From NCBI GenBank assembly GCA_022794255.1, contig JAAWEL010000027.1, positions 1,676 through 65,675 of the forward strand: 64,000 nucleotides of DNA, read 5' to 3'. The notes beneath the pieces were generated by a model. It was not told the DNA's origin. It was given only the letters and a program-made list of their open reading frames with translations, and ran no database searches. Made by a program: the position numbers and the translations under genes. This DNA is from Lachnospiraceae bacterium (GTDB lineage: Bacteria; Bacillota; Clostridia; Lachnospirales; Lachnospiraceae). Positions 22,984 through 45,050 of this stretch are shown here, piece after piece. Position 1 is the first letter of the stretch. Each line of letters begins with the position of its first letter.

Positions 22984-23581
22984 TTAATCCAGCTTGCGGA
23001 CGGTTATGGATGTGTTGTCTGCCCTACTGACAGTCGCCAAGGAAGTTGTTCGAGGAATTACAGCATTATTAGCGGTAAGATGCACACCAACCAGAACCGG
23101 CGAATTAACAGAGGCCGAATTAGTGCCAACCGTATGATACGAAATCTCATAAGTTCCGTTTGCCACCAGGGAAAACCTACCAGTATTCACAGGATGTACA
23201 ATATCCGTGCCCTTGATAAACAAAGAATCTGTAAAGTAAATGAGCCCATTCCTTCCCGGAGCCTGCGCTACATCACTAACTGACATCAACGCATGCAGCA
23301 CAGGAGCTGGACCTGCAGCTCCCGGAATCCCCTGGGGGCCCTGGGCTCCGGTAGGACCAGTTGGTCCGGTAGACCCTACCGCGTTCACCAGATCAAAGTC
23401 CGGGGACGTTCCCAGCACTCTTACCGGGGAATTTTTGTTTGCACGGTACAAGGTGCCATTCCAGTAAACCAGATCCCCCTGCAGCATCCTCTATTACCAC
23501 AGTTCTGGTTAGTTGTGCAGTTCTAATTACTTCCACAGTTTATATTTCCCCACACCCGGAAGCCATTGGATCATAATACAT
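22984..23581 (-). pseudogene. collagen-like (BclA-type) spore surface protein, disrupted
   Basis: RBS AAGGAG plus MYYDPMASGCG start at 23581, Cys-rich frameshifted segment with stops, then an ORF with GPT/GPQ triplets and a BclA-C-like tail ending SITVRKLD. Confidence 0.65.
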
Positions 23582-26007: not shown

Positions 26008-28566
26008 ATGAGAAGGACATACAAAAAGCAGGCAGAAGATTTTATCAAGCTGTTAGAACAGGTGCATACAGAGATAAAAAAGTCTATAGAAGCAAAAAAG
26101 TATAATACAGCCATGGAGCTTTTAGGTCAATGCCAGGAAGGCGCCATTGGGCTGGGTAATCTGATAGAGAAAGAGGAGGGAGAAGATTTTGTCACGATTC
26201 CTCTTTTACAGTCTTACTGTGAAGTTACCTATCAATTGTACAAAGGCCTGTACCAAAAGGAAGATTTGCCTGGAAACAGGGCATACAAAAATCTCAAAAA
26301 GGCTTTGATCCAGATAGAAAACAGTGTAAGAAATGATATCAAAGGACGGCTGGAAATCGTGTTTCTTCCTTATAAGGCATCCATGTGGGACAGCATGGAA
26401 AGTGTCTGGCAGGCAGCAGCAGCGGATCCGGACTGCAGCACCTATGTTGTGCCGATTCCATACTATGAGAGAAACGAAGAGGGTGTGCTGAACAAATACT
26501 GCTATGAGGGAGATCAAATGCCGGATTATGTGCCAGTGACCTCCTATAATGCCTACAATTTCAAAGATCAAATGCCAGATGTGATCTATATTCACAATCC
26601 ATACGACCAGGGGAATTATGTGACCAGTATTGACCCCAGATTTTATTCTGGTGAATTAAAAAAATGCACTTCATGTCTTGTATATATTCCCTATTATAGT
26701 ACTGCGGGTGGAATGGGCGAGGGACAAAGCCTTTGTCAGGCGTATTTTAATGTGGACCATATTGTCGTCCAGTCAAAGAAATTCATCAAATTCTTTGACC
26801 CGGTTATTCCGGAAGAAAAGTTTTTGCCCTTGGGTTCTCCCAAATTTGACCGGGTGATTCAAATGTGCAGCAATCCGCCGAAAGCGCCAGAAAGCTGGAA
26901 GAAAAAAATGGAAGGCCGGAAGGTTTATTTTTATAACACAAGCATTAACGGAATGTTGGCAGATACAAAGACCTTTCTGAAAAAAATGGAATATGTGTTC
27001 CAATGTTTTGAGAACCGGCCGGATTCCTGTCTGTTGTGGCGTCCTCATCCTCTGCTGGAATCCACCTTTGCGTCTATGAGGAAAGAGTATAAGCCCTGGT
27101 ATGACCGGCTGAAAAAGCAATTTGCAGATGCAAATCTGGGAATATACGATGACACTTCAGATATCACCAGCACAATTGCCCTGTCAGATGCTTATATCGG
27201 GGACGCAGGAACAAGTGTCACCTCTCTTTTTGGCATTGTGGGAAAACCCCTGTTTATATTCAATAACCAGATTAACACTCTTCCCCAGTCCGATGACTGG
27301 AGGGGCGAAAAGATTAATCTGGCGTTGGACGTTTGGGAAAATGACCGATACCAGATTACCCAAAATAACCAGCTGTGGTTTTCTGAAAAAAATGATTACC
27401 ACTATAAATTTTATATGGATCTGGGAACCGGATATTCGGGAGGCAGCTATTACATAAGAGCCCTGGAAATCAAAGATAAGATATATGTCCTTCCGGGAAA
27501 CGCTCAGAATCTGCTGATTATTGAAAACAAAAAAATAAGAAGGATTGATTTTAAGACAAAAATCCCACAGCCGGGAGCTTTTTACAGTTACTGGTACAAT
27601 GAAAAATATATTTTCCTGATTCCCTTTCAGTATCCGCTGCTTCTCCGGTTCAATATAGAAACAGAAGAATTGCAGGGGATAGAGGGCATCCGGCCGTTCA
27701 ATGTGCGAAATATAAATGGAGAATGGCGGGCCGGAGGTGTGGGTATATACGGCAATGAACTGGTTTTTGCCTCCCCAAAGGACAATGAATTTATCTTCAT
27801 AGATATAAATACATTGCGGGCCAGAGGGTTGTGCAGCCATTCCCATTGTAATCTTGGAACCCAGGGAATCATAAATGAAGGGGATGAGTTGTGGCTGATG
27901 CCCATGAACGGCATGACTATTACCTGTTGGAATCCAAAGACAGGACAGGTGAGAGAATATGATGATCTGCCCGGTGATTTTAAGTCTGTTCGGTGGCCAC
28001 AGGAGCAGGAATGTAGGGAACGGCCCTTTTTGAATCTGGTATTTTGGAGAGTGAGCGGGAAAGAAAATATTGTCATAGCTCCATGTTGGGGGAATATGTA
28101 TCTGACTCTGGACCGGGAGACTGGAAAAATGGAGAAATGGGAGCCGCCGGTTCCTTTTGTTAATCGTGGAAAAAACGGCTATTTTGCTGCCTCAGGTATG
28201 GGGAGTTTCTGTGTCACCTACCCACGGATGGGAAAGGCTGACTGCCGGATCTGGTATGCGCCAGAGAGAAAGCTCTATGATATCAACATTGACACAAAGG
28301 AATATAAAGAGATCGAAATCAATTTTGATTACCAGGATCTTCGGGAGCATGAGTGCGGATTTATGGAGGAATCGGAGTGGATGCAGTATTGTCTCAATGA
28401 AAGTGCATTTAACTCTCTGAAAGATTTTCTGGATGGAAGGATAACCGGCAATCCCTTTGACAGAGAAAGGCAGATCCGGGCGTTTTCAAAAATAAACGCA
28501 TCAACAGACGGGGCCTGCGGGAAGCGGATTCACCGTTTTGTAAAGGGAAGGCTGGGGGATTGCTGA
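26008..28566 (+). CDS. CDP-glycerol glycerophosphotransferase-like protein with N-terminal helical bundle and C-terminal beta-rich domain
   Basis: FLPYKASMWDS, YIHNPYD, LGSPKFD, LWRPHPL and SDAYIGD motifs. Confidence 0.75.
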   Translation: MRRTYKKQAEDFIKLLEQVHTEIKKSIEAKKYNTAMELLGQCQEGAIGLGNLIEKEEGEDFVTIPLLQSYCEVTYQLYKGLYQKEDLPGNRAYKNLKKALIQIENSVRNDIKGRLEIVFLPYKASMWDSMESVWQAAAADPDCSTYVVPIPYYERNEEGVLNKYCYEGDQMPDYVPVTSYNAYNFKDQMPDVIYIHNPYDQGNYVTSIDPRFYSGELKKCTSCLVYIPYYSTAGGMGEGQSLCQAYFNVDHIVVQSKKFIKFFDPVIPEEKFLPLGSPKFDRVIQMCSNPPKAPESWKKKMEGRKVYFYNTSINGMLADTKTFLKKMEYVFQCFENRPDSCLLWRPHPLLESTFASMRKEYKPWYDRLKKQFADANLGIYDDTSDITSTIALSDAYIGDAGTSVTSLFGIVGKPLFIFNNQINTLPQSDDWRGEKINLALDVWENDRYQITQNNQLWFSEKNDYHYKFYMDLGTGYSGGSYYIRALEIKDKIYVLPGNAQNLLIIENKKIRRIDFKTKIPQPGAFYSYWYNEKYIFLIPFQYPLLLRFNIETEELQGIEGIRPFNVRNINGEWRAGGVGIYGNELVFASPKDNEFIFIDINTLRARGLCSHSHCNLGTQGIINEGDELWLMPMNGMTITCWNPKTGQVREYDDLPGDFKSVRWPQEQECRERPFLNLVFWRVSGKENIVIAPCWGNMYLTLDRETGKMEKWEPPVPFVNRGKNGYFAASGMGSFCVTYPRMGKADCRIWYAPERKLYDINIDTKEYKEIEINFDYQDLREHECGFMEESEWMQYCLNESAFNSLKDFLDGRITGNPFDRERQIRAFSKINASTDGACGKRIHRFVKGRLGDC

Positions 28567-28669: not shown

Positions 28670-30004
28670 ATGACAAAGGTAATAACATATGGAACATTTG
28701 ACCTCTTCCACGAAGGTCATTACCGGCTTCTTCAAAGAGCAAAAGCGCTGGGAGATTATCTGATTGTAGGAGTGACCACAGAGGCCTATGATAAGGCACG
28801 GGGAAAGTTGAATGTGGTGGATTCTTTGATGACCCGGATTGAGAATGTGAAAAAGGCAGGCTTTGCCGATGAAGTCATCATCGAGGAGGAGCTGGGGCAG
28901 AAGATCAATGACATTAAAAAGTTTCAGATTGATATTTTTACCGTTGGCTCTGACTGGGCGGGAAGCTTTGATTATCTGATGGATTATTGTAAGGTAGTAT
29001 ATCTGGAGCGAACAAAAAACATATCCAGTACCATGCTGCGGGAGAAAAACAGCTGTATCCAGAGAATCGGGATTATAGGAACCGGGCGGATTGCACAGCG
29101 GTTTATTCCAGAGGCCAGGTTAGTCAGCGGAGTCAGTACCCAGGGAGTCTACAATCCTCATATCACGAGTGCAAGACGGTTTGCTGACAAGTGGGAAATT
29201 AATGCGTATACCGATCTGGAAGAATTTTACAGTGCAGTGGATGTGGTTTACATTGCCTCGCCTCACGAGACGCATTATGAATATATCCGGTCTGCCCTAA
29301 ACCATGGCAAACATGTCCTTTGTGAAAAGCCTATGGTGCTGAAAAAAGCGCAGGCAGAGGAGCTTTTTGAGCTGGCAAGAGAGAAAAAAAAGGTTTTGTT
29401 TGAGGGGATCAAGACAGCCTACTGCCCGGGATTTCACAAGCTTTTAGGCGTTGCCGGCAGCGGAACGGTGGGAATGATCCGGAATGTGGAGGCTTGTTTT
29501 ACAAAGCTGGAACAAGAGAACAGCCGGGAGCTGACTGCTCCGGTGTACGGGGGAAGTTTTCTGGAGTTGGGAAGCTATGTGATGCTTCCGATTCTTAAGC
29601 TTTTCGGAAAGGATTTTGAAGAGATCCGGTTTGATACCATTAAGGGAGAAAACGGGCTGGATCTTTTTACAAAAGCTTCTCTTTGTTATCCAACAGGGGT
29701 GGCTACCGCTACTTGCGGGCTGGGGGTCAAGTCGGAGGGAAGATTGTTGATTGCCGGAACAAAAGGATATATTGTGGCGGAGGCGCCCTGGTGGAAAACC
29801 TCCTATTTTGAGGTTCACTATGAAAATCCAGGGGAGGTCGACAAGTATTCGGAACGGTTTTTAGGGGACGGGCTGCGGTATGAGATCAGTGATTTTCTTT
29901 CCATGATTAACGGGAACAGCAGCAGCGAATTTAAGCTGACCCGGGGAGAGTCGGTGGCATTGGCTGGGGTGATGGAGCGGTTTATGGAGGAGAGAGAGGG
30001 ATGA
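28670..30004 (+). CDS. TagD-like cytidylyltransferase fused to a Gfo/Idh/MocA oxidoreductase
   Basis: ITYGTFDLFHEGH, GSDW and RTKNISST motifs, then GIIGTGRIA and HVLCEKP. Confidence 0.88.
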   Translation: MTKVITYGTFDLFHEGHYRLLQRAKALGDYLIVGVTTEAYDKARGKLNVVDSLMTRIENVKKAGFADEVIIEEELGQKINDIKKFQIDIFTVGSDWAGSFDYLMDYCKVVYLERTKNISSTMLREKNSCIQRIGIIGTGRIAQRFIPEARLVSGVSTQGVYNPHITSARRFADKWEINAYTDLEEFYSAVDVVYIASPHETHYEYIRSALNHGKHVLCEKPMVLKKAQAEELFELAREKKKVLFEGIKTAYCPGFHKLLGVAGSGTVGMIRNVEACFTKLEQENSRELTAPVYGGSFLELGSYVMLPILKLFGKDFEEIRFDTIKGENGLDLFTKASLCYPTGVATATCGLGVKSEGRLLIAGTKGYIVAEAPWWKTSYFEVHYENPGEVDKYSERFLGDGLRYEISDFLSMINGNSSSEFKLTRGESVALAGVMERFMEEREG

Positions 30005-30918
30005 GAGGGATGGGGTGCGGGAGTGTATCGGAAGCTTATGTTAGTCCAAAATCATCCCCCTATTTTGCTTTTAATATATGGAGCATCGAATCTGCAAAAG
30101 CGGTGCTTGACGGTTCCGCAAAAGCAGGCCGGGACGTGATTCTGCAGACCTCCATGAAAGCATTTCTAAGATTGGATAAAGAAGAGCTCCGCAGATTTGT
30201 CACCAGCTATATGCATAAAAAACAGATTCGGGCTTACCTGCATTTAGATCACTGCAAAGATCCGGATCAGATAAAAGAGGCTATAAGTCATGGCTGGGAT
30301 TCCGTGATGATCGATGCCTCCCACAAGCCATTGGAAGAGAATATTGCAATGACCAATCTTGTATGCAGGATGGCAGAAGGAACCGGGATATTAGTGGAAG
30401 CAGAGATCGGGCAGATCTTTAAGGCCGGGGATGACATCCACAATGCAGAAACAGGAATTGCCAGGATAGAAGATATTAAAACCTTTGTGAAAAACACCAG
30501 GGCCCATATTCTTGCAGCAGCAGTAGGCACATCCCATGGTTTATACAAAGGCCTGCCAAAGATTCACTATGACCTGATAGAAGAAATAGCAGCTTTTACC
30601 AATATTCCTCTGGCAATCCATGGGGGCACAGGCCTTACGGACGAGATGTTTTTAAAACTGTTATCCCATGAAAACGTTAAAAAAATCAATATTTCAACGG
30701 ATGTAAAGATGGCCTTTAGGCAGGGAATTATGGAAAGCCTTCAAAAAGGATCGATGAGCGAAGGCGGTTTTGATCCTATGAAGGTAGAAGAGGCGATCCA
30801 TGATTTTCTGGAAGAAATGGCGGTAAATAAATTGAGATTATTAAGGAAAGACGGTAACCATGAAGACAATTCTTGTTCTGAATATGGGTATGAAAAGTAT
30901 CCGGAGCATTATCTTTGA
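30001..30918 (+). CDS. class II fructose/tagatose-bisphosphate aldolase family protein
   Basis: LHLDH, SVMIDAS, VEAEIG, GTSHG, IHGGTG and KINIST motifs. Confidence 0.9.
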   Translation: MRGMGCGSVSEAYVSPKSSPYFAFNIWSIESAKAVLDGSAKAGRDVILQTSMKAFLRLDKEELRRFVTSYMHKKQIRAYLHLDHCKDPDQIKEAISHGWDSVMIDASHKPLEENIAMTNLVCRMAEGTGILVEAEIGQIFKAGDDIHNAETGIARIEDIKTFVKNTRAHILAAAVGTSHGLYKGLPKIHYDLIEEIAAFTNIPLAIHGGTGLTDEMFLKLLSHENVKKINISTDVKMAFRQGIMESLQKGSMSEGGFDPMKVEEAIHDFLEEMAVNKLRLLRKDGNHEDNSCSEYGYEKYPEHYL

Positions 30919-32392
30919 CAGCGAGGGCAATAAACTGGCCTCATTTGCAGTGCCCATAGAAACCTCCCTTACCGGCGATACCGTTACCCAGGCCCCGTCC
31001 GAGTGGTGGGAGAAGGCATGCAGGGTGATAAGGGAGTCTCTGGCAGATGCAGGGAATATTTCGGTTGACTATCTGACTGTGACCACATCTTCCTCCTGCC
31101 TGGTATGTGTGGACAGGGAAGGGGAGGCGCTTCTTCCCTGTATGATGGTATCAGACAAGAGGGCAGTGAAAGAGAGTGCTTTGCTAAAAGAGGCAAAGGC
31201 CTTTGAGAAAGTAAAGACAAGAACAGGGCTGGGGGCAGACCCGTCTCTGATGATTCCAAAAGCCTTATGGGTGAAGAGAAACCGGCCGGAAATATTGGAC
31301 CAGGTGTATCAGCTGTTATCGCCCAATGATTTTCTCATTGCGAAATTTACTGGCCGGTATGTGACCGATTATATGAATGCCCAGAAATGGCATTATGATG
31401 TGGAGAACCGCTGCTATCCCCTGGAATTATTGCAGGAGGTGGGAATCCCCCAGCAGTTTCTCCCCAAAGTGGCAGTTCCCGGCGCTTGTGTGGGAAATGT
31501 GCTGTGTGCGGCTGCAAAGAAAACAGGGCTTTCCACAAACACCCAGGTAATCGCAAGTACCTATGATGCCATATGCTCTTTTATTGGAAGCGGCGCCTTA
31601 AGTGAAGGGGAGGCAAGCGATGTTTCGGGAACTGTTACTGTGTTCCGGGCAGCCTCCCAAAAGAAGATAGAAAAGCCGTTGGACAAGATACAGCAGCTTC
31701 CTTACTATGAAGGCGGCGTCCACATCATTGGCGGTTCCAACAATTTAGGAGGCGGTTTGATCGAATGGGTAAAGCAGTGCTATTACCAGAATGAAGCGCT
31801 TCCCTATGAGCTTATGGAAAAAGATGCAGGGGAGGCATCTTTAGGAGCAGGAGGAATCATTTTCCTGCCTTATCTTTTGGGAGAGCGGGCGCCCATATGG
31901 GACAATAATGCCAGAGGGGTGTTTTTTGGATTGGAGAGAATGCACACCAGAAAGGAAATGACAAGAGCTGTTTTTGAAAGCGCAGGATTCATAGACCTGG
32001 ATATGATCGGAGCGATTGAAAAGACAGGGTTATCGGTCCATACCATCCGGCTTTCCGGGGGACTGGCCAGACTGAATCTGATTTCCCAGATTAAAGCGGA
32101 TATTACAGGGAGGGAGGTCTGGGTGCTTTCGGAATTTGAGACTACAGCCACCGGGGCGGCAATGATTGCGCTGTACGGACAAGGGGTTTATCAGTCTTTG
32201 CGGGAGGCAGTGGACCGATTCGTGCAGATCCGCATGATGATCCGGCCGAACCAGAAAAACCATGAAAAATACACAGAGCTGTATCAATTATATAAGGAGA
32301 CCTACCACACCCTAAAACCGCTGTTCCCAAAGAGAATGGAATTGACGGAACGCTTGTATGGAATAAAAAGGATTAAGATAGAAAATCTTTGA
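30860..32392 (+). CDS. FGGY-family carbohydrate kinase (xylulokinase-like)
   Basis: DKRA, SGT, FLPYLLGERAPIWD, SGGLAR and QIKADITG motifs. Confidence 0.9.
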   Translation: MKTILVLNMGMKSIRSIIFDSEGNKLASFAVPIETSLTGDTVTQAPSEWWEKACRVIRESLADAGNISVDYLTVTTSSSCLVCVDREGEALLPCMMVSDKRAVKESALLKEAKAFEKVKTRTGLGADPSLMIPKALWVKRNRPEILDQVYQLLSPNDFLIAKFTGRYVTDYMNAQKWHYDVENRCYPLELLQEVGIPQQFLPKVAVPGACVGNVLCAAAKKTGLSTNTQVIASTYDAICSFIGSGALSEGEASDVSGTVTVFRAASQKKIEKPLDKIQQLPYYEGGVHIIGGSNNLGGGLIEWVKQCYYQNEALPYELMEKDAGEASLGAGGIIFLPYLLGERAPIWDNNARGVFFGLERMHTRKEMTRAVFESAGFIDLDMIGAIEKTGLSVHTIRLSGGLARLNLISQIKADITGREVWVLSEFETTATGAAMIALYGQGVYQSLREAVDRFVQIRMMIRPNQKNHEKYTELYQLYKETYHTLKPLFPKRMELTERLYGIKRIKIENL

Positions 32393-32405
32393 TAAAGGGG
32401 AGCTT

Positions 32406-33557
32406 ATGAAACCATATCCGTTGAATATTCCCACAAAAGTTTATTTTGGAAGAGATATATGGAGAGAGGCTGTAAAAGCCCTGGAACCTTTCTTTAGAGG
32501 AAATATTATGCTTGTGACTACCGGGCGTTCCCTTACCCGCCTGGGTTATGTGGAAGAACTGGCGGAAACAATAAAAAAGTGCCCTTTGGCAGAGCGCGTG
32601 ATAATTTTTGATTCCGTCAGCGCCAATCCCAGACTTTCAGAGGTGAGAAAGGGGATTGGGTCAGGAAAAGAAAACAGGGTAAGTGTGATTCTGGGGTTTG
32701 GTGGAGGAAGCGCTTTGGATGCAGCCAAGGCCATAGCAGCCGGTATGGGGATTGAAGAGGACATCGGAGCGCTTTTTTATGGCAGGAAGGAGCCGGGAAA
32801 GAACACGCTGCCAGTGATCGCCATTCCCACAACAGCCGGAACTGGAAGTGAGCTGAGCAAAGCCGCTATTATCACGGATGAACAGACCAGGAAAAAGGGA
32901 GGAATCCGGGGCGCGGCTCTTTATCCAAAGGCTGCGATTGTGGATTCTGTATTTACAGATTCCATCCCCCTTCGTGTGACCATGGAAACAGGATTTGACG
33001 TGTTTGCCCATGGGATGGAAAGCTATCTGTCCCTGGCAGGATCTCCATACACAAGAATGCAGTCTGAGTATGGAATCCAGATTGTAGGAAAATATCTTCC
33101 GCGGCTGTTTTTTGATCTGGAGGATAAGGAGGCAAGAGACAAGTTAAGCTTTGCCAGTATGATTATGGGAATCAACTTGGGGAATGCCAGCACCTGCCTT
33201 GTACACAGGCTTCAGTATCCTTTAGGAGCCCATACGGATACCAGCCACGGAGCCGGGTTAGCTGCTCTGTTTCCAGCGTGGACAAGCTTTGAGCATAGAT
33301 ATGCGCCCCATATGGTAGAGAGGGGAGTCAGCCTGCTTTGGGGACAGGATATCTGCGGGCAGCAGGCATGTATGGAGAAAATTCGCTGTTTTATAGAAAA
33401 ACTGGAACTTCCCCTGTCTTTAAAAGCCCTGGGGGTGAAACGAGAGCTTTTGCAGGTTATGGCATCCGAGGTGACAGGAAATGTGAAAAATGATCCGGCG
33501 TCACAGGAGGAAGACATTATTATGAAATTATATACTATGTCTTTTGACGGGCATTGA
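32406..33557 (+). CDS. iron-containing alcohol dehydrogenase
   Basis: GGGSALDAAK, IPTTAGTGSE, DVFAHGME, LVH and SHG motifs. Confidence 0.92.
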   Translation: MKPYPLNIPTKVYFGRDIWREAVKALEPFFRGNIMLVTTGRSLTRLGYVEELAETIKKCPLAERVIIFDSVSANPRLSEVRKGIGSGKENRVSVILGFGGGSALDAAKAIAAGMGIEEDIGALFYGRKEPGKNTLPVIAIPTTAGTGSELSKAAIITDEQTRKKGGIRGAALYPKAAIVDSVFTDSIPLRVTMETGFDVFAHGMESYLSLAGSPYTRMQSEYGIQIVGKYLPRLFFDLEDKEARDKLSFASMIMGINLGNASTCLVHRLQYPLGAHTDTSHGAGLAALFPAWTSFEHRYAPHMVERGVSLLWGQDICGQQACMEKIRCFIEKLELPLSLKALGVKRELLQVMASEVTGNVKNDPASQEEDIIMKLYTMSFDGH

Positions 33558-33591
33558 ATGAAAAGTAAATGGAATGAGAGGAATCGGATCG

Positions 33592-34329
33592 ATGCAGGCA
33601 ATCATTATGGCTGCCGGGAAGGGCAGCAGACTGGGAAAAATAACAGAAGGAAAGCCAAAATCTTTCGCAGAAATAAAGGGAAAGAAATTGATTGAGTATA
33701 ATCTGCAGCTTTTAAAAAAGTATGGGATTGAAGATATCTTTATTGTGACAGGGTATTGTTGTGAGGCGTTTGAAAAGCTGACAGAAAATATGGAGGGAGT
33801 ACATCTGATCTACAATCCTTTTTATGAGATGATGAATGTACTTGGCTCCTTTTACATGGGAATGGATGTTCTGAAAGATGATTTTGTCTATCTTCATGCA
33901 GATACTTTGTGTGAGCCTGTTATATTTGAAAAGCTGATTCATATGGCTTCTGATGCAGACGCAGTTCTTCCCGTGGATTATGGTCCCTGCAATGAGGAGG
34001 CTATGAAGGTAAAAACCATAGCAGGGAATATTGTGCAGATCACCAAGCAGATACCGGTGGAAGAGGCAGAGGGAGAGTTTATCGGTATGGCAGCCTTTCG
34101 GAGAGAGCTGATACCGGCGCTTAAGGACAGGACAAAAAGGCTTTTGCAGGAAAAGAATTTTAACGAATATTTTGAACGTGCAGTTCAGAGGCTTATTGAC
34201 GAAGAAAATTACCGGATCAAAGCAGTTCCCACAGCAGGCGCTTTCTGGACAGAGATTGATTTTATGGAAGACTATGAAAAAGCGGTGGCGTGTATACCGG
34301 AGAGTCTGACAGGAATTTTTGAAAGGTAG
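33592..34329 (+). CDS. LicC-like NTP transferase (phosphocholine/sugar-phosphate cytidylyltransferase family)
   Basis: MAAGKGSRL...KPK, EEAMKV, GEFIG and WTEIDF motifs. Confidence 0.88.
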   Translation: MQAIIMAAGKGSRLGKITEGKPKSFAEIKGKKLIEYNLQLLKKYGIEDIFIVTGYCCEAFEKLTENMEGVHLIYNPFYEMMNVLGSFYMGMDVLKDDFVYLHADTLCEPVIFEKLIHMASDADAVLPVDYGPCNEEAMKVKTIAGNIVQITKQIPVEEAEGEFIGMAAFRRELIPALKDRTKRLLQEKNFNEYFERAVQRLIDEENYRIKAVPTAGAFWTEIDFMEDYEKAVACIPESLTGIFER

Positions 34330-34357
34330 TTTCATTCACACAAGGAAATGGCAGAAA

Positions 34358-35584
34358 ATGGGATATAACGAAAAAAGCGATTTATCAGAAAGAATTTATA
34401 TTGCAAAGCGGAGAGGGAAGGCATTTCTTCACAGTCTGGTATTTGATCTGTGCCGGATTTTTCCCATAGATCCGAAAAAGGTGGTCATGTGGACCTTTGA
34501 GTGCGGAGGCGGGTATGGGTGCAGCCCCAAATATGTGGCAGAGGAAATACTAAGGCAGAACCGGGAGGGGAATACGGATTATAAAATTGTCTGGCTCATG
34601 AATGATACCGATAAGGAGTTTCCAAAGGAGATAAAAAAAGTAAAGAATACCCTTTGGCATCGGGCATACCATCTGAGTACTGCCAGTATTTGGGTCAGCA
34701 ATACCAGAACCTTCTACGGCACCAAAAAGAGAAACAAGCAGTGTTATATCCAGACATGGCATGCAACCATGTGTATAAAGCCAATCGGAAAATACCGGGG
34801 CAACCTGCTGCCTAAAATGGCATATATTGTCAGCAAATATGATTCCGGCCTGATTGACTATGTGCTGTCCGGATCAAAATGGTGCGATCATATGTACCGG
34901 AAGGGACTGATTTATAAGGGAAGGATTGTAAGAACAGGAACGCCCAGATGTGATGTGCTCATAAACCAAAAGGAGGAGAAGCACAGGCAGATGAGGGAGG
35001 AATGCAAGATTCCCCCAATGGCAAAGATCTTACTGTACGCGCCCACATTCCGCGGGGGAAGTCAGAGTGGAAAGCGGTCTGTGAACGGGGAGGAGACAAC
35101 GGTTGATTTCAAACGCCTTATAGAAAGCCTGAAAAAAAGATTTGGCGGCCAATGGTACATATTTTTGCGGCTTCATCCCCAACTGGCAGTGAATACAGAA
35201 GGGATTCATACCGGACAGACATCCGAACGCCTGATTGATGTGAGCCAGAGACCGGATATGAATGAGATCATAGCTGGAGCAGATGCCTTTCTGACAGACT
35301 ATTCCAGTGCTGTTTTTGAGGCGGCTATGGCCGGGATACCCGGATTTATCTATGCGGATGATCTGGAAGAGTATATAAAGGACCGGGGAGATTTGATGTT
35401 TGATATGAAGAAACTACCCTTTCCTGTGGCTTTGGACAATGATGGCCTGATGAGAAATATCGCAGAGTTTGACAGCGAGAAGTATGAGAGAGCGGTAAAA
35501 GCATTTATGGAAAAGGTGGGAAACGAGGAAGATGGGAAGGCAAGCGGGCGAGTTGTGGAATTGATCAGGAGAGGAAGAAAATAA
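34358..35584 (+). CDS. TagF-like CDP-alditol phosphotransferase
   Basis: CSPKY, IQTWHA, GTPRCD, LYAPTFRG, RLHP and LTDYSS motifs. Confidence 0.9.
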   Translation: MGYNEKSDLSERIYIAKRRGKAFLHSLVFDLCRIFPIDPKKVVMWTFECGGGYGCSPKYVAEEILRQNREGNTDYKIVWLMNDTDKEFPKEIKKVKNTLWHRAYHLSTASIWVSNTRTFYGTKKRNKQCYIQTWHATMCIKPIGKYRGNLLPKMAYIVSKYDSGLIDYVLSGSKWCDHMYRKGLIYKGRIVRTGTPRCDVLINQKEEKHRQMREECKIPPMAKILLYAPTFRGGSQSGKRSVNGEETTVDFKRLIESLKKRFGGQWYIFLRLHPQLAVNTEGIHTGQTSERLIDVSQRPDMNEIIAGADAFLTDYSSAVFEAAMAGIPGFIYADDLEEYIKDRGDLMFDMKKLPFPVALDNDGLMRNIAEFDSEKYERAVKAFMEKVGNEEDGKASGRVVELIRRGRK

Positions 35585-35837: not shown

Positions 35838-36023
35838 GGAAAGTTATTGAAATCGGCTTGTTATATTTATTGTGATATGAATGAATAGATGGGAGGAATT
35901 AAACAGAATACCAGGATGTTTTCTAAGGGTAAGAACAGCCATAACTTATGGAAAGAATGGTATTTTTGTGTAAGATAAGAACGGAAATGAAGATACTAAG
36001 TTAGAAAAGAGAGGGATATTATA

Positions 36024-37604
36024 TTGGCAATACTGAATGATAGAATCGTTGTTGGAACATCAATAGCACCTGTAAATATTGAACATCAAATGTTAGCTAT
36101 TAAATCATGGATAAAAAATGGTTTTCAAGTTGTATCATGCAATGTAAAGGAAGAAATAGAAATTATTAAACCGTTTTTTGAAGGAATAGATATAGAGTTT
36201 GAAGAAATTCCATGTGTGATTGATTCAGTACGAACAAAACCTCTGCCGTATCTTCAGGATATTTTATTAGCAGCAAATAGGAGAACAGAAGGGGTGGTAG
36301 GATTTATTAATTCAGATATCTACCTTGATAGGATCACATCTGAGTTTTATGATTTTTTGATGAAAGAGACCAAAAACAGTTTGGTCTTTATTAGAAGAAA
36401 TGAGATAGATGATATTGAGGATATAAGAGAAATAAACTGGACAATTCATTTTGACGGAATCGACATGTTTCTAATCGACAGCAAATTTGTCTGTGAATTT
36501 TATGATGATGGATTTTTTGTACAATCTTGTTGGGATCATTGTATTTTGATAAAGGCTGAAATGCAGGGAATACAGATAAAGGAATTAATGAATCCTATTG
36601 CATTTCATAAACGACATAAGCAAAGGTGGAATTTTGAAACTTCCAATATTCTAGTTGAACGATTTTGGGAGAAATATTATAAAAAAGATGAACATGTTTT
36701 CGAAAAAGTTATGGATAAATTTTATGATATTTTATTAACATGCAGACAAATTTGTTTTCTAAAAGAAGAAAAGATCTCTTGTTTGTGTGTTGTAGATCCA
36801 AAAGATAACAGAATTGTTACTAATCTGGAATCTCAAGAATTAGATATGATAGATATTACTATTCAGTATGATGATCAAAATATAGAAAGATATAAATATG
36901 TTTTTTACATTCCTGTGAATACAAGAGTGTCACCAGTATTCTGTAAAACTATAATCTATATTATGTATTCTTTCGGATGTTCAAGTCTGGAAGCTGGCAA
37001 GTTTTATGTTTTGAAGGTAAATGAAAAATATCATAATAGTAGTTTGAATCGCAATATTCACTATTTAGAAGAAATTCAAGAAGAATGTCGAAATAGTACA
37101 ATTATATACAGGATAGAAAAAAATTTTAAAAGAAACAATATTTATTTAAAAAAAGTACTGAGACCGATTATTTATGAAAATATAAGTATCGAAAATCGGA
37201 ATATTTTCAGAAAAATAAAACCAAAGGGAAAATACTATATAGCACCAGCTGGTATACGTGCAGCGCAGTGGTATACAGCTAACAATTATAAAATGATTAC
37301 TATGCAATTTGCAGGATTTATTGATAGTAATAAAAAAGGAAAGAATAACTATGGGATAATTTATCCTATGGATATTTTACTAAATGATTCAGAAGCTTAT
37401 GTAATTATAGCAAGTAAATATTATGCAAAAGAAATTATCGAACGAACAATGGAGTTTATAAATGAAGACAGATTACTAAATGCGGGAAATATTTGTTATA
37501 TAAGTCCAGAAGGAGATCTTTTCTATTTTGATTTAGAACAATATAAAAGAACTTTAAAAAGTGAATTATTGAGTGAAGATTGGGATACGAACAAATCTTC
37601 TTGA
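36024..37604 (+). CDS. hypothetical glycosyltransferase-like protein with C-terminal Rossmann-like module
   Basis: GFINSDI (DxD-like) and GIDMF motifs; AT-rich; TTG start. Confidence 0.6.
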   Translation: MAILNDRIVVGTSIAPVNIEHQMLAIKSWIKNGFQVVSCNVKEEIEIIKPFFEGIDIEFEEIPCVIDSVRTKPLPYLQDILLAANRRTEGVVGFINSDIYLDRITSEFYDFLMKETKNSLVFIRRNEIDDIEDIREINWTIHFDGIDMFLIDSKFVCEFYDDGFFVQSCWDHCILIKAEMQGIQIKELMNPIAFHKRHKQRWNFETSNILVERFWEKYYKKDEHVFEKVMDKFYDILLTCRQICFLKEEKISCLCVVDPKDNRIVTNLESQELDMIDITIQYDDQNIERYKYVFYIPVNTRVSPVFCKTIIYIMYSFGCSSLEAGKFYVLKVNEKYHNSSLNRNIHYLEEIQEECRNSTIIYRIEKNFKRNNIYLKKVLRPIIYENISIENRNIFRKIKPKGKYYIAPAGIRAAQWYTANNYKMITMQFAGFIDSNKKGKNNYGIIYPMDILLNDSEAYVIIASKYYAKEIIERTMEFINEDRLLNAGNICYISPEGDLFYFDLEQYKRTLKSELLSEDWDTNKSS

Positions 37605-37617
37605 AAAGGAATATTTT

Positions 37618-38736
37618 ATGAATAAAAGTATTGCAGTACTAATTCCAAGTTACGCAGAATCATTGACTTCAAATGAGATGATTTCACTAATACAAGTAAG
37701 AAAAATTCTACGAGAATATGATATCTTTTTTATACTTCCAACTTCATTGAAAATTGATTATTCATGTGAAGATATTATTGAAAAAAGATATCCAAATGAG
37801 TATTTTTCTTCTCGCAGAGCATATAGTCGTTTTATGTTGGAACCAATATTATATAAGGATTTTATAGAATATGATTATATATTAGTGTATCAATTAGATG
37901 CCTTTGTATTTTGGAATCGACTCAAGTATTTTTATGATTTGGGTTATGATTATATTGGTGCACCGTGGATCGATGGGATTTATTTCAAAAAGAATAGAAG
38001 AGAATATAAATGGCATGTGGGAAATGGCGGGCTATCTCTAAGAAGAACTTCTGCTTTTTTGAAATGGATTGAACACGAAGAATTTTTTCCGTATATTGAT
38101 TTTATAAATGAAGACATATTGATTGCAGTGTATGGGTATCCATATCTCAATATTGCGCCATTGGATATAGCAGCTTCTTTTTCATTCGAGATGGATTATG
38201 AACAATGTATAAAGTTGACAGAAGGAAAGATGCCGTTTGGTTGTCATGGATGGGAAAAATATGATTTTGATTTTTGGAAACCACTGATTGAAAAACAGGG
38301 ATATAAAGTGGAGACCGCAGAGAAGAACGAAATAGAAAATGCTAATGCAGTTAAAGTGTTAAATAAGTTTTGTTGTAGAAAATATACATATGACGAAATC
38401 CGAAAGATGATACCTCTTTCTTATCAAAATCGTATGCAAGGAGTATATATATGGGGAGTTGGTTTTTGGGGAATTTCATTAATGCAAAAATTACTAGATA
38501 GTGAAGTATTCGTTTCTGGCTTTGTTGATAATGATAGCAGACAATTTGGAAAAAAAATCTTATCATATCCAATAATACAGCCAGAATTTTTTTATAATAC
38601 AAAAAAACCAATCATTATTGCTATAGAAAAGAAATCAGAAGAGGTAGAAAAACAGTTACAGAAATATGGATATAAAAGAAAAAGGGATTACATTGTATTG
38701 GGTGATATAATAAAAGAGATACTAAATGAAAGATAA
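37618..38736 (+). CDS. DUF5672-like putative glycosyltransferase plus Rossmann-like module
   Basis: YQLDAFV, YDYIGAPW, GNGGLSLR, NED and PFGCH motifs. Confidence 0.8.
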   Translation: MNKSIAVLIPSYAESLTSNEMISLIQVRKILREYDIFFILPTSLKIDYSCEDIIEKRYPNEYFSSRRAYSRFMLEPILYKDFIEYDYILVYQLDAFVFWNRLKYFYDLGYDYIGAPWIDGIYFKKNRREYKWHVGNGGLSLRRTSAFLKWIEHEEFFPYIDFINEDILIAVYGYPYLNIAPLDIAASFSFEMDYEQCIKLTEGKMPFGCHGWEKYDFDFWKPLIEKQGYKVETAEKNEIENANAVKVLNKFCCRKYTYDEIRKMIPLSYQNRMQGVYIWGVGFWGISLMQKLLDSEVFVSGFVDNDSRQFGKKILSYPIIQPEFFYNTKKPIIIAIEKKSEEVEKQLQKYGYKRKRDYIVLGDIIKEILNER

Positions 38737-39850
38737 ATTAAGTATGAAAAGAATAGGAATTTTTGCGTTTTTTGATGGATGTGGGATAGTAGATGATTAT
38801 AAGTTGTATTTATTGGATAGTTTGAATTATATTCTTTCAGAAATAATTATTATAATTAATGGATTCATACAAGAAGAATCGCTTGCAAGATTATATGATT
38901 ATACAAATCATATTTATATCAGAGAGAATATGGGATTTGATGCTGGTGCTTATAAAGATATTTTAATGGGTAATATAACATGCATAGAATGGGATTTATG
39001 GGATGAAATTATATTACTAAATGATACCTTTTATGGTCCATTATATCCTTGGGAAGAGATATTTCTGACAATGGATAAAGAAATACTTGATTTTTGGGGC
39101 TTTAGCCGATTTAGTAGTGGAAAACTATGGGATGGTTCAACTATAACACAACATATTCAGGCATATTTCATAGCAGTAAGAAAAAGTATGTTCAGTACTT
39201 TACAATGGAAAAAATTTTGGGAGGGTTTTGAATATCCATCCTCCTATATGGAGGCAATCAAAAAATTTGAAATCAGTTTTACAGATTATTTTTCAAAAGA
39301 AGGATTTTGTTATTCAACATGGATGGATAAAAATGATGGGGAATCCTATATTAAAGAAAATTTAAATCCCTATATGGAGTTTGCATATGATCTTGTTAAA
39401 TACTGTAGATTTCCTATAGTCAAGTATCGGGCATGCTCAGTCGTTAGGTATTCATCAACAAAAGCACTTTTGAATTATATTGAGAACAACACTGATTATG
39501 ATAAAAGGTTAATACTAAAGCATGTTGAACGGATGGATAAAGAAATGAGATTAAAACCATTTGGTATTTCAGAATTAAAACAGTTTGTTAATTCTCATAA
39601 TAGAATATTTATTTTTGGCCATGGAAAATATGGAAAGGGATTAGAAGAATATTTTCAAGAAAAAGGTTGGAAGATAAGTGGATTCATTATGTCAGTTCCT
39701 AATTCGCAGCACAGAAATGAAATAGCACTACAGGATATAGAAATTAGAAAAACAGATGGATTAATTGTTGCTGTAGCGAATGGAGATGAAATTAGACCAG
39801 TTTTAAATAAGAAATTTGAAGATAAGCAATTGTTATTTGCAAGATTTTAA
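38726..39850 (+). CDS. RgpF (rhamnan synthesis F)-like protein plus Rossmann-like module
   Basis: RENMGFDAGAYK, LNDTFYGP, DFWG and HIQAYF motifs. Confidence 0.82.
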   Translation: MKDKLSMKRIGIFAFFDGCGIVDDYKLYLLDSLNYILSEIIIIINGFIQEESLARLYDYTNHIYIRENMGFDAGAYKDILMGNITCIEWDLWDEIILLNDTFYGPLYPWEEIFLTMDKEILDFWGFSRFSSGKLWDGSTITQHIQAYFIAVRKSMFSTLQWKKFWEGFEYPSSYMEAIKKFEISFTDYFSKEGFCYSTWMDKNDGESYIKENLNPYMEFAYDLVKYCRFPIVKYRACSVVRYSSTKALLNYIENNTDYDKRLILKHVERMDKEMRLKPFGISELKQFVNSHNRIFIFGHGKYGKGLEEYFQEKGWKISGFIMSVPNSQHRNEIALQDIEIRKTDGLIVAVANGDEIRPVLNKKFEDKQLLFARF

Positions 39851-40024
39851 AAAGGCTATATAATCGTTAGTTTATCAAAATGAAATGTAAATCAATATTA
39901 AAAGTCTGAAGCAGTTAATAGCTGATTTTGTAATTAGCTATATTCTTTTTTAGAGAGTGTGAGTGGGAATGGTCTTTGGAATAACTTTAACTGAGTAATG
40001 ATGGATGGGAGTAGCAAATTTATT

Positions 40025-41206
40025 ATGTTAATATCTGTAATAGTGCCTATATTTAATACAGGACAATATTTATATGATTGTTTGAATAGTATTTTAAGAC
40101 AAACTTATAAGAATATTGAAATCATCCTTGTAGATGACGGATCAACGGATGCGAGTTATCAAATTTGTATTGAATACGCAAAAAGAGACTCAAGAATTGT
40201 AACTATACGAAGTGAACATCAGGGGTTAATTTCGGCCAGAAAATTGGGTTTGGAAAAATCGAAAGGTGAGTATTGTTTATTTGTAGACAGTGATGATTGG
40301 ATTGCAGAAGATTTGTTGAGTTCAATAGTTCCACTTACAGACAATGGAGCAGTTGATATTGTTAATTATAATATAAAAAGTGTAAAAAATACGATTATTA
40401 CTGAGTGGAAATATACAATTCCAGATGGAGTATACAAATATCAACAGTTAGAGAATATTTATAGGAAAATGATGTTTGACTTTGATAGTGGATGTCCAGG
40501 AATCATTCAATCTTTATGCAGTAAATTAATAAAAAAAGATATCTTGTTAAAAAGCATGGAATTTATAGATACAAGAATTACAATGGGAGAGGATGCTGCA
40601 GTAACATATAATGCAATGTTGTTGGCAAAGAAGGTTGCAATTGTTGGTGGAAGCTATTTTTATTTTTATAGAGTGCGTCAAAATTCCATATGTAGTTCAA
40701 AAGATAGTAATATATTTTTGAAAATTTGCTATTTTCAGAAATATATGCAGAATATTTTTGAAAAATATGATGAAAAATATGATTTATATAAGCAATTACA
40801 GGCGTATTTAATCGCTTTTATTCAGAAAGGAATGTCTGATGTTTTCTCAATAAAAATGCAGAGCATATACCATTTGCCATTTAGCTGGACAGTTATGGGT
40901 CAAAAGATTATCTTATATGGTGCAGGAACTGTTGGGAGATCCTATTATAAACAATTAAAACAAATTTCGGGTATTGATATTATAGCTTGGGTGGATAGTG
41001 AATTAGTTGAACATCAGATATATGATTATAGGATAGATTCACCGAAGGTTATTGTTCATAGCAATTTTGACAAAATCGTAATAGCTATAAAAAATCGAAG
41101 TATTGCAGAAAAAATTAAAAATGACTTATGCCAATATATTTCTAAAGAAAAAATTTTATGGGAAGAGCCGCGAATAAACTGGTGGGAAAAAGAAATAGAT
41201 GTCTAA
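40025..41206 (+). CDS. GT2 glycosyltransferase plus Rossmann-like module
   Basis: ISVIVPIFN, VDDGSTD, FVDSDD and MGED motifs. Confidence 0.92.
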   Translation: MLISVIVPIFNTGQYLYDCLNSILRQTYKNIEIILVDDGSTDASYQICIEYAKRDSRIVTIRSEHQGLISARKLGLEKSKGEYCLFVDSDDWIAEDLLSSIVPLTDNGAVDIVNYNIKSVKNTIITEWKYTIPDGVYKYQQLENIYRKMMFDFDSGCPGIIQSLCSKLIKKDILLKSMEFIDTRITMGEDAAVTYNAMLLAKKVAIVGGSYFYFYRVRQNSICSSKDSNIFLKICYFQKYMQNIFEKYDEKYDLYKQLQAYLIAFIQKGMSDVFSIKMQSIYHLPFSWTVMGQKIILYGAGTVGRSYYKQLKQISGIDIIAWVDSELVEHQIYDYRIDSPKVIVHSNFDKIVIAIKNRSIAEKIKNDLCQYISKEKILWEEPRINWWEKEIDV

Positions 41207-41259
41207 AAATTATGGCAAGGAAATATAAAGGGCATTGTAAAGCATAGGGAGATTAGATT

Positions 41260-42435
41260 TTGATAAAAAGTAAAGACCTGATAAGTATAATAGTTCCGAT
41301 ATATAATGTAGAAAATTATGTAGAGAAATGTATTTTAAGTATTATAAATCAAACTTATTCAAATTTACAGATTATTTTAGTTGATGATGGTTCTTCAGAT
41401 AAATCTGGAAATATTTGCGATTTTTACGCCGAACAGGATCAAAGAATCCAGGTGATTCATCAAAAAAATTCAGGATTGGTTAGAGCAAGGAAAAGCGGCC
41501 TAGAACAAGCAAAAGGAAAATATATAGGATTTGTGGACGGGGATGATTATATAAACGAAAGCATGTATGAAAATATGCTACAGAGCATTTTACGATCCCA
41601 CGCAGATTTTGTACATACAGGTTATTTTGAAGAACAGTTGAATGGTGTTAAGGAAAGGATTGATTATAAGGAACAAATTTATGACATTAGAAATAACAGG
41701 ATACAATTTTTAAGTAATTATGTAATTAATGAAAGTCAAGCAAAGAAAATGACTTTTAGTATATGGTCAAAATTATTTAAGAGGGAATTGATCGTAAGGT
41801 GTTATCAAAAAATTCCAGATTATCAATCTTATGGAGAAGATATGTTAGCACTGTTGGCTTGTGTGATGGAAAGTGATTTGATTTATATGAAAAGGGAGGC
41901 ATATTATCACTATGTGCACAGAAACGATTCTATAACAAATGAAAACTGGATAAAAGTTATAGGTGATTTGGTTTCATTATATGTATGTGTTAAAAATTTA
42001 CTACAAGATTATAATATATATGATAACCTATCTAATCAAATCGAACAATGGCTTCAAATACAAGTAATTGGTAATGTTGTTTCATCGCCAAAGGTTCGTT
42101 TTAGTGTCCAACGGTATTTTTATCCAGATATTATGTCTTTGCAGGGAAAGAAAATTGTTATATACGGAGCAGGAACTGTAGGCCAGGATTTTTACGCTCA
42201 GATCTGCAGATATCGAGATTGCAGGATTGTAGCTTGGGTTGATAAATATGATTCTAATTATAAATATGATTATATGGAAGTAGTTGGAAAAGAGGAATTG
42301 AAAAAATATGACTATGATATACTGGTTATCGCTGTAAACAGTAACGAAATAGCAATGCAAATAAGATCAGAATTAATAAAAGATGGTATAGATAAAAATA
42401 AAATAAGATGGTTAAAGCCGCAGTATTTCTTGTGA
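41260..42435 (+). CDS. GT2 glycosyltransferase plus Rossmann-like module
   Basis: ISIIVPIYN, VDDGSSD, FVDGDD and YGED motifs. Confidence 0.92.
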   Translation: MIKSKDLISIIVPIYNVENYVEKCILSIINQTYSNLQIILVDDGSSDKSGNICDFYAEQDQRIQVIHQKNSGLVRARKSGLEQAKGKYIGFVDGDDYINESMYENMLQSILRSHADFVHTGYFEEQLNGVKERIDYKEQIYDIRNNRIQFLSNYVINESQAKKMTFSIWSKLFKRELIVRCYQKIPDYQSYGEDMLALLACVMESDLIYMKREAYYHYVHRNDSITNENWIKVIGDLVSLYVCVKNLLQDYNIYDNLSNQIEQWLQIQVIGNVVSSPKVRFSVQRYFYPDIMSLQGKKIVIYGAGTVGQDFYAQICRYRDCRIVAWVDKYDSNYKYDYMEVVGKEELKKYDYDILVIAVNSNEIAMQIRSELIKDGIDKNKIRWLKPQYFL

Positions 42436-42458
42436 AGAAAGTTGGGGATGTTTTTGGT

Positions 42459-43661: not shown

Positions 43662-43677
43662 TGGAGAAAATATAATC

Positions 43678-45006: not shown

Positions 45007-45050
45007 ATATATAAGAATCTGAAAATGAACAAGGGACAGGGAATTATTTT

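Follow-up and report, generated by a model that had tools for sequence, protein, structure and literature searches.

A recurrent aldolase-kinase-dehydrogenase-nucleotidyltransferase cassette predicted to supply an atypical CDP-alcohol in a surface-glycan operon of a Lachnospiraceae bacterium

Phosphodiester-linked small alcohols such as glycerol, ribitol and choline set surface charge, phage recognition and immune recognition, and the supply routes for these substituents are considered well mapped. Among the described systems, the pneumococcal serogroup 23 loci have the gene order wchX-gtp1-gtp2-gtp3 (PMC5581491) and make CDP-2-glycerol (PMC1391919). Here, we analyzed a 64,000-nucleotide stretch of a mouse-gut Lachnospiraceae bacterium genome (contig JAAWEL010000027.1, positions 1,676 to 65,675 of the forward strand; hereafter the window), in which six tightly packed genes at 28670-35584 encode a TagD-Gfo/Idh/MocA fusion, a class II aldolase, an FGGY-family kinase, an iron-dependent alcohol dehydrogenase (Fe-ADH), a LicC-like nucleotidyltransferase and a TagF-like transferase. 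This block is very probably the precursor-supply head of a long surface-glycan operon, and it consists of two modules, each with its own phosphotransferase. The four genes from the aldolase to the nucleotidyltransferase (module B) in all probability make a CDP-alcohol other than CDP-sn-3-glycerol, and the adjacent TagF-like enzyme would transfer the alcohol phosphate onto a glycan.

In the pneumococcal pathway (serotypes 15 and 23), Gtp1, Gtp3 and Gtp2 are reported by Wang and colleagues (2010) to act as reductase, then phosphotransferase, then cytidylyltransferase. Like this system, the cassette pairs a reductase and a phosphotransferase with a LicC-like cytidylyltransferase and a TagF-type phosphotransferase, and in both cases a glycan would be decorated with a phosphodiester-linked small alcohol. 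It differs in that the reductase is an Fe-ADH and not glycerol-1-phosphate (G1P) dehydrogenase-like, the phosphotransferase belongs to the FGGY and not the HAD-IIA family, and a class II aldolase is added. Our comparison runs via look-alike loci in Clostridia rather than pneumococcal sequences, and only the cytidylyltransferase and the TagF-like type are shared. These sister loci came from searching the nucleotidyltransferase against 400 phylum-level and 400 order-level genomes, where distant homologs of 27-40% identity in other Clostridia adjoin G1P-dehydrogenase-like genes whose products score 265-311 bits against the G1P dehydrogenase model. The sister loci also carry TagF-like, CDP-alcohol phosphatidyltransferase or LicD genes, with or without a HAD-IIA gene. 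Examples of such gtp-like cassettes lie at L084:6586-11405, L077:8794-11555 and L078:7953-13496, the first with the order TagF-like, G1P-dehydrogenase-like, nucleotidyltransferase, HAD-IIA. Since related cytidylyltransferases elsewhere sit in the wchX-gtp1-gtp2-gtp3 order, the cassette is a non-orthologous cousin of the CDP-2-glycerol pathway.

Other described systems share parts of this logic. TarI/TarJ, Bcs1 and TagD/TarD with TagF/TarL likewise activate an alditol phosphate with CTP and transfer it with a TagF-family enzyme, and the TagD-oxidoreductase fusion found here recalls the bifunctional reductase/cytidylyltransferase Bcs1. In contrast to these CDP-ribitol and CDP-glycerol routes, which need no kinase or aldolase, module B has a LicC-like instead of an IspD/TarI-like nucleotidyltransferase and an Fe-ADH instead of a TarJ-type MDR enzyme, and the Gfo/Idh/MocA partner of TagD is also different. 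The capsule-locus routes to CDP-D-arabinitol (AbpA/AbpB, S. pneumoniae 17F) and CDP-6-D-glucitol (Campylobacter jejuni HS:5) start from central ketose phosphates and use a cytidylyltransferase followed by a reductase on the CDP-ketose, with neither kinase nor aldolase; the cassette draws on different enzyme families and adds both. In the C. difficile type A flagellin genes CD0241-CD0244, a nucleotidyltransferase and a TagF-like enzyme attach N-methylthreonine phosphate to a protein-linked sugar, again without the aldolase, FGGY kinase and Fe-ADH of the cassette. Finally, FucK/FucA/FucO offer the same combination of FGGY kinase, metal aldolase dependent on dihydroxyacetone phosphate (DHAP) and Fe-ADH, which act in series in anaerobic L-fucose catabolism; FucO is 26% identical to the dehydrogenase described here. 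However, the cassette aldolase is of the other class II fold (PF01116) and not of the FucA type, it stands in a biosynthetic setting, and the genes that follow encode a nucleotidyltransferase and a transferase. No published description of the cassette was found in our literature searches, and a paper on the S. pyogenes qim operon turned out to be unrelated.

All six genes lie on the forward strand and belong, by Pfam and NCBIfam, to the families first assigned to them. The TagD-Gfo/Idh/MocA fusion of module A (28670-30004, in a reading frame open from 28622) is followed by module B, which comprises a class II (Zn) DHAP-dependent aldolase of the GatY/FBA IIb type (30001-30918; PF01116, E 9e-68), an atypical FGGY-family kinase (30860-32392; FGGY_N E 1e-35, FGGY_C E 4e-31), a group III Fe-ADH (32406-33557; E 4e-40) and a LicC/Gtp2-like nucleotidyltransferase of the NTP_transf_3 family (33574-34329), with LicC as its best solved relative. 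The block ends with a TagF/TarF-like CDP-alcohol phosphotransferase, a single-domain protein of 421 aa (34319-35584; PF04464 Glyphos_transf, E 3e-64). Neighboring genes overlap or stand 13-16 nt apart, with, in gene order, a 4-nt overlap, a 59-nt overlap, a 13-nt gap, a 16-nt gap and an 11-nt overlap.

To follow the cassette beyond this genome, we scanned species-representative genomes with the kinase, mapped the window proteins onto the resulting 67 loci and clustered all open reading frames (ORFs). The loci span Lachnospiraceae, Treponema, Selenomonas, Paenibacillaceae and Cohnella. Kinase, Fe-ADH and nucleotidyltransferase keep the same order in essentially every complete locus, and the order aldolase, kinase, Fe-ADH, nucleotidyltransferase occurs in 52 of the 67, all from different species. 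Because the same orders recur so widely, the arrangement is not chance. The original prediction had taken all six genes as one linear pathway. Conservation supports the kinase-dehydrogenase-nucleotidyltransferase trio as a unit, while the aldolase is absent from 15 loci and the TagD-Gfo fusion, present in only 37 and at variable distance from the kinase, belongs to a separate module. In the 400 order-level genomes, the nucleotidyltransferase had two close matches, so that the cassette is sporadic; close relatives of the kinase number hundreds in metagenomes.

The gene next to the nucleotidyltransferase provides the strongest argument for the product. It is TagF-like in 44 of the 67 loci. A LicD-like gene is present in 14, together with a TagF-like gene in only three, and in 11 loci a LicD-family gene in front of the aldolase replaces the TagF-like gene. 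In a Cohnella locus (L059), a CDP-alcohol phosphatidyltransferase (CDP-OH_P_transf) gene follows the nucleotidyltransferase. TagF-like, LicD-like and CDP-OH_P_transf enzymes all use CDP-alcohol donors. Three unrelated and interchangeable CDP-alcohol transferase partners therefore indicate that the product of the cassette is a CDP-activated alcohol phosphate.

Several variant loci were considered separately. In four loci without the aldolase, a 540-aa gene for an AAA-ATPase with a PD-(D/E)XK nuclease lies between TagD-Gfo and the kinase, at the aldolase position (L003:6242-7882, L056:6039-7664, and also L010 and L061), possibly a mobile or defence gene that took the place of the aldolase. In a Blautia-like genome (L021), the aldolase is absent and the Fe-ADH is reduced to a 25-residue N-terminal remnant (G001:C33:151661-151735) between intact kinase and nucleotidyltransferase genes. 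We rejected using this locus to argue that the transferase takes the product of the kinase, because the remnant marks a recent deletion. Gene fusions were likewise discounted as evidence for the order of steps, since both Fe-ADH-nucleotidyltransferase fusions (metagenome/NCBI proteins P0123 and P0124, 626 aa; 65% and 71% identical to the two window proteins) and a fusion of the neighboring LicD and aldolase genes (P0125, 598 aa) occur. A glycerophosphodiesterase (GDPD) as an alternative to the aldolase was also rejected, because the two co-occur in 18 loci and GDPD tracks TagD-Gfo (21 of 23).

The kinase, which starts MKTILVLNMGMKSIR, is the most conserved protein of the cassette, with 53-89% identity across orders. 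It matches both FGGY_N (PF00370) and FGGY_C (PF02782), and its best equivalog is XylB (TIGR01312) at 279 bits against a cut-off of 380, with other FGGY equivalogs scoring lower. Its first motif had been noted as odd, and the oddity is real and a hallmark of the family: LNMGMKSIR is invariant in 64 orthologs. The phosphate-1 motif N8-M-G-M-K12-S-I-R15 was found in 64/64, with N8, G10, K12, S13 and R15 invariant, and does not follow the FGGY consensus DxGT[TS]xx[KR] seen in the aligned XylB (DLGTSGVK) and glycerol kinase (DEGTTSAR). The catalytic base D236 in YDAICSFIGSG and the adenosine motif GGLAR...Q.KAD are invariant. The glycerol-binding positions of glycerol kinase all differ here (Ser/Ser/Val/Ser), and the enzyme therefore fits a different substrate or a different orientation.

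For the aldolase, which scores below every NCBIfam equivalog cut-off, we aligned 51 orthologs with E. coli FbaA and GatY. The FbaA positions N35, S61, D109, H110, E182, H226, H264, N286, K325 and R331 were confirmed residue by residue on the E. coli sequence. The Zn ligands H84, H179 and H207 and the catalytic D83 are invariant in the orthologs and align with FbaA H110, H226, H264 and D109. The DHAP phosphate site is also intact, with an HGG[ST]G loop and invariant K228-I-N230 (FbaA G265, S267, N286). FbaA R331, which we take to be the binder of the C6 phosphate, corresponds to M260 in the window protein and to L/I/V/M/T/S in 51/51 orthologs. The Arg is kept in E. coli FbaA, in GatY (DPR motif) and in a catabolic aldolase from locus L067. 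In addition, Trp27 is invariant in all orthologs, where FbaA has Val and GatY has His. Since the Arg is lost, Trp27 is invariant and the DHAP site is intact, the enzyme would be expected to bind DHAP, and glyceraldehyde-3-phosphate is very unlikely as the aldehyde partner. The catalytic mobile-loop Glu of FbaA (E182) is Glu in 44 of the 51 orthologs and G143 in the window protein (loop FKAGDD), and it is also missing in the aldolases of L001, L023, L040, L062 and L029. K236 was rejected as a special residue, as E. coli GatY has it too. The aldolase of the window carries a C-terminal extension that reaches 59 nt into the kinase gene (30860-30918) and is not kept in orthologs; in the closest locus, L001, the two genes lie a few bases apart.

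The Fe-ADH has the NAD(P) motif GGGS (GFGGGSALDAAKA) and intact D198, H202, H267 and H281, which align with the metal ligands of FucO. It is about equally similar to butanol, lactaldehyde, sulfoacetaldehyde and phosphonoacetaldehyde reductases, and on this basis it is predicted to be an aldehyde reductase for a small substrate. The glycerol-1-phosphate dehydrogenase model NF002022 gave 35 bits over the N-terminus only, so the enzyme is not of that type. A family-specific invariant segment, K164-G-G-I-R168-G, is also present. R168 aligns with Val in FucO and with Ser, Gly or Ala in four solved relatives, on the strand after the conserved Lys, which presumably lines the substrate pocket (FucO V164).

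The nucleotidyltransferase likely starts at Met7 (33592). It carries the AAGKGSRL signature and matches LicC (1jyk) with E 4e-17 over residues 7-111 only, and its substrate half has no characterized relative. It is probably a cytidylyltransferase. ESM Atlas returned only generic names, with 'phosphocholine cytidylyltransferase family protein' for this family. The adjacent TagF-like transferase contains a full-length Glyphos_transf domain (218 bits, residues 46-416), and scores 128 bits against the TarF model and 104 bits against TarL, both far under cut-off; the TarB cut-off was also missed.

Module A is most likely a unit that supplies and uses ordinary CDP-glycerol, as judged by the TagD motifs, the match to solved TagD/TarD enzymes and a TagF-like partner. 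Pfam places a CTP_transf_like domain at residues 21-141 of the fusion (E 1e-18) and a GFO_IDH_MocA domain at residues 148-384 (E 2e-30). Solved TagD/TarD structures 2b7l and 1coz match residues 17-141 (E 1e-31), the motifs HEGH and RTKNISST correspond to the HxGH and RTxGISTT types, and the oxidoreductase domain shows GxGxxA and EKP. The NCBIfam model TIGR01518 gave 109 bits, under its whole-protein cut-off of 165. The true start is likely 28670 and not 28622, because Met17 follows the ribosome site GGGAAGGA and residue 1 of TagD aligns there. Just outside the six-gene block, at 26008-28566 (forward strand), lies a gene for an 852-aa protein with no Pfam, NCBIfam or PDB sequence match. An AlphaFold model built from an 18-sequence alignment (pLDDT 87) has an N-terminal helical bundle, a TagF-like GT-B region at about residues 115-420 and a C-terminal beta-propeller at about 440-800; Foldseek matched the model to TagF (3l7l), GT-B 2-epimerases and beta-propellers, and the alignment contains the TagF-like motifs WRPHPL and IGDxGTSVTSLF..GKP. 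The modelled fold suggests that this protein is probably the phosphotransferase partner of TagD-Gfo, using CDP-glycerol. Its homologs lie directly upstream of TagD-Gfo in 18 loci. A GDPD gene often follows TagD-Gfo, which is sometimes on the opposite strand; 21 of the 23 GDPD-bearing loci carry TagD-Gfo, and in L025 the Gfo domain is fused to GDPD in place of TagD. TagD-Gfo, GDPD and the 852-aa TagF-like protein thus co-vary as a separate unit. In this unit, the TagD domain would convert sn-glycerol-3-phosphate and CTP to ordinary CDP-glycerol, the Gfo/Idh/MocA domain, and GDPD in other genomes, would probably feed glycerol-3-phosphate to it, and the upstream TagF-like/beta-propeller protein would probably consume the product.

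For module B, we propose, with a confidence just short of even, the order aldolase, Fe-ADH, kinase, nucleotidyltransferase. The aldolase would cleave a ketose phosphate to DHAP and a short aldehyde. From this aldehyde, the Fe-ADH would form a primary alcohol (a diol or polyol in the C2-C4 range) for phosphorylation by the atypical FGGY kinase, and the LicC/Gtp2-like enzyme would couple the alcohol phosphate to CMP. With release of CMP, the adjacent TagF-like enzyme would then link the alcohol phosphate to an accepting sugar through a phosphodiester bond. We favor this order because each enzyme then performs a reaction typical of its family, because the order reported for the Gtp pathway is mirrored, and because the aldehyde side of the aldolase, hydrophobic and with its Trp, fits an unphosphorylated short aldehyde. 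In assigning substrates, step order and nucleotide, we infer from the families, motifs, conservation and three transferase couplings observed above. Aldol condensation, the reaction originally proposed, found no specific support, with the aldolase missing from 15 loci and the window copy lacking the Glu.

The alcohol cannot be named from the sequences, which give no pointer to a long or branched alditol. A glycerol phosphate isomer (glycerol-2-phosphate or sn-glycerol-1-phosphate) is a tentative first guess; a C4 tetritol phosphate and a C2 unit are each rather unlikely, and 1,2-propanediol phosphate has a slimmer chance still, with the rest of the probability left to some other alcohol. Neither CDP-ribitol nor the ordinary CDP-glycerol derived from sn-glycerol-3-phosphate is a likely product of the LicC-like enzyme, in keeping with the original prediction of a non-standard alcohol.

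A number of points weigh against the pathway proposed above. The aldolase, absent from 15 of the 67 loci, may have an accessory role, and the window copy lacks a counterpart of the FbaA loop residue E182. Central metabolism offers no ketose 1-phosphate whose tail is neutral, leaving the aldolase with no obvious feedstock. The Asp-to-Asn change at the usual Mg site of the kinase is not accounted for. With its invariant R168, the Fe-ADH may favor an anionic (phosphorylated) over a neutral aldehyde. Lastly, for the pneumococcal parallel, Gtp1 and Gtp3 are assigned to their presumed families by gene order.

The best surviving alternative, possible and clearly below an even chance, is that the kinase acts first. 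In this order, the FGGY kinase would phosphorylate a central ketose phosphate a second time, the aldolase would cleave the resulting bisphosphate to DHAP and a phosphorylated short aldehyde, the Fe-ADH would reduce the latter to an alcohol phosphate, and the nucleotidyltransferase would activate it. From xylulose-5-phosphate or ribulose-5-phosphate, this would lead through glycolaldehyde phosphate and 2-hydroxyethyl phosphate to CDP-ethylene glycol, and from sedoheptulose-7-phosphate through erythrose-4-phosphate and erythritol-4-phosphate to CDP-erythritol. By our reasoning, no other order both begins with universal metabolites and requires all four enzymes; however, we know of no characterized FGGY kinase that is active on a phosphorylated sugar, and erythrose-4-phosphate is already a central metabolite. 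To our knowledge, no natural glycan contains ethylene glycol phosphate, and our literature search for this unit in glycans found none. On the side of the dehydrogenase, invariant Arg168 and Lys152 would suit an anionic aldehyde, and relatives of the enzyme reduce phosphono- and sulfoacetaldehyde (the NCBIfam models PsrA and SarD score 151-167 bits). In the sister loci, a G1P-dehydrogenase-like gene, implying a phosphorylated-carbonyl substrate, adjoins the nucleotidyltransferase, sometimes without the third enzyme. For the aldolase, the lost C6-phosphate Arg together with Trp27 would fit a shorter bisphosphate, whereas the aldehyde-side pocket looks more hydrophobic, not more basic; its loss in 15 loci could be covered by a housekeeping fructose-bisphosphate aldolase. 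The gene order, with aldolase and kinase followed by the dehydrogenase and then the nucleotidyltransferase, agrees with the kinase acting first, while the Fe-ADH-nucleotidyltransferase fusions add little weight given the LicD-aldolase fusion. Also in favor of this order, the genes for TagD-Gfo and the aldolase overlap by 4 nt, and the fusion could convert the DHAP co-product to CDP-glycerol.

Much less probable is that only ordinary donors are made, with the LicC-like enzyme producing CDP-choline or CDP-glycerol and the aldolase, kinase and dehydrogenase boosting the triose or glycerol supply. The TagD domain is indeed convincing as a glycerol-3-phosphate cytidylyltransferase, but CDP-sn-3-glycerol would not call for a second cytidylyltransferase of another fold, strictly tied to a peculiar kinase and a dehydrogenase across more than 60 species, and many loci carry the cassette without any TagD. 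The automatic family name points to phosphocholine, yet a choline kinase or transporter is absent and only the N-terminal half (residues 7-111) aligns to LicC. The aldolase is dispensable in 15 loci, as a mere booster might be, while the kinase has none of the glycerol-binding residues of glycerol kinase. A catabolic operon that degrades a ketose to DHAP and a diol, with the transferase adjacent by coincidence, is highly improbable: the trio mirrors anaerobic fucose (FucK/FucA/FucO) and rhamnose catabolism, and a distant FGGY and PF01116 pair does occur in a cluster for polyol catabolism (L067) that also encodes an SDR dehydrogenase, an RpiR regulator and a sugar-binding protein, but no isomerase, transporter or regulator gene was found among the 67 loci, the cassette invariably comes with a nucleotidyltransferase and a CDP-alcohol transferase within glycan loci, and the catabolic relatives are only 24-30% identical and keep canonical motifs. 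The distant pairs in L066 and L067 are catabolic and uninformative on the substrate of the cassette. Even taken jointly, these last two readings are unlikely, and the location inside a glycan operon, with constant coupling to a CDP-alcohol-type transferase, bears out the biosynthetic role first proposed for the genes.

Downstream of the block, the window encodes glycosyltransferases of the GT2, GT4, GT11, RgpF-like and DUF5672 types. We found no intrinsic-terminator-like site between 35584 and the next gene at 36024. The G+C content falls from about 45% in the block to 28-30% over about 10 kb of glycosyltransferase genes (window 36000-46000), which suggests that a variable set of transferase genes, acquired recently, has been joined to a conserved head for precursor supply. 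Within the window, we recognized neither a Maf-like gene nor genes for a flippase, a polymerase, a priming transferase or flagellin; a 526-aa protein after the block proved not to be Maf-like. In related loci, the genes downstream of the cassette include Maf/MptE-like, PseB-like, DegT, NeuB, radical-SAM and GmhA-like (SIS) genes and a reversed HldE-like gene consisting of cytidylyltransferase-like and PfkB parts (L007:14065-15375, L044:13062-16055, L021:13292-14173, L002:14399-15931, L047:12147-12722). Such a make-up is typical of flagellin-glycosylation islands with nonulosonic-acid and heptose pathways.

Three further genes of the window deserve mention. An 806-aa protein (51603-54023) has a C-terminal TagD-like domain at residues 672-798, the third nucleotidyltransferase domain of the operon, and Pfam gives no match for its roughly 670 N-terminal residues. 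At 19507-20304, 4 kb upstream of the operon, lies a gene for a HAD-IIA (NagD/TIGR01457-like) phosphatase, which belongs to the same HAD subfamily as the HAD-IIA gene of L084, the 'third gene' of that gtp-like locus. On the minus strand, a 167-aa ORF at 22984-23487 has a weak match to the BclA C-terminal domain.

Beyond the initial reading, the analysis divides the block into two modules, describes the 852-aa protein as TagF-like, counts the interchangeable transferases and relates the cassette to gtp-like sister loci; it also defines residue signatures in the aldolase, kinase and dehydrogenase that constrain, and do not settle, the chemistry. It is conceivable, if doubtful, that a new building block (CDP-ethylene glycol, CDP-tetritol or CDP-1,2-propanediol) is made from a ketose phosphate and that both halves are used on one glycan. 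If so, the aldehyde half would become the new CDP-alcohol and the DHAP half would become CDP-glycerol via TagD-Gfo, placing two phosphodiester units on one surface glycan. The four-enzyme route, which has no characterized member, is found repeatedly in gut Clostridia, spirochaetes and Negativicutes. The identity of its product would either extend the set of CDP-alcohols or reveal another way to make CDP-2-glycerol or CDP-sn-1-glycerol, and would explain an FGGY subfamily in which Asn replaces the metal-binding Asp. It would also help to interpret the many loci for glycans and flagellin glycosylation in the gut microbiota that lack annotation.

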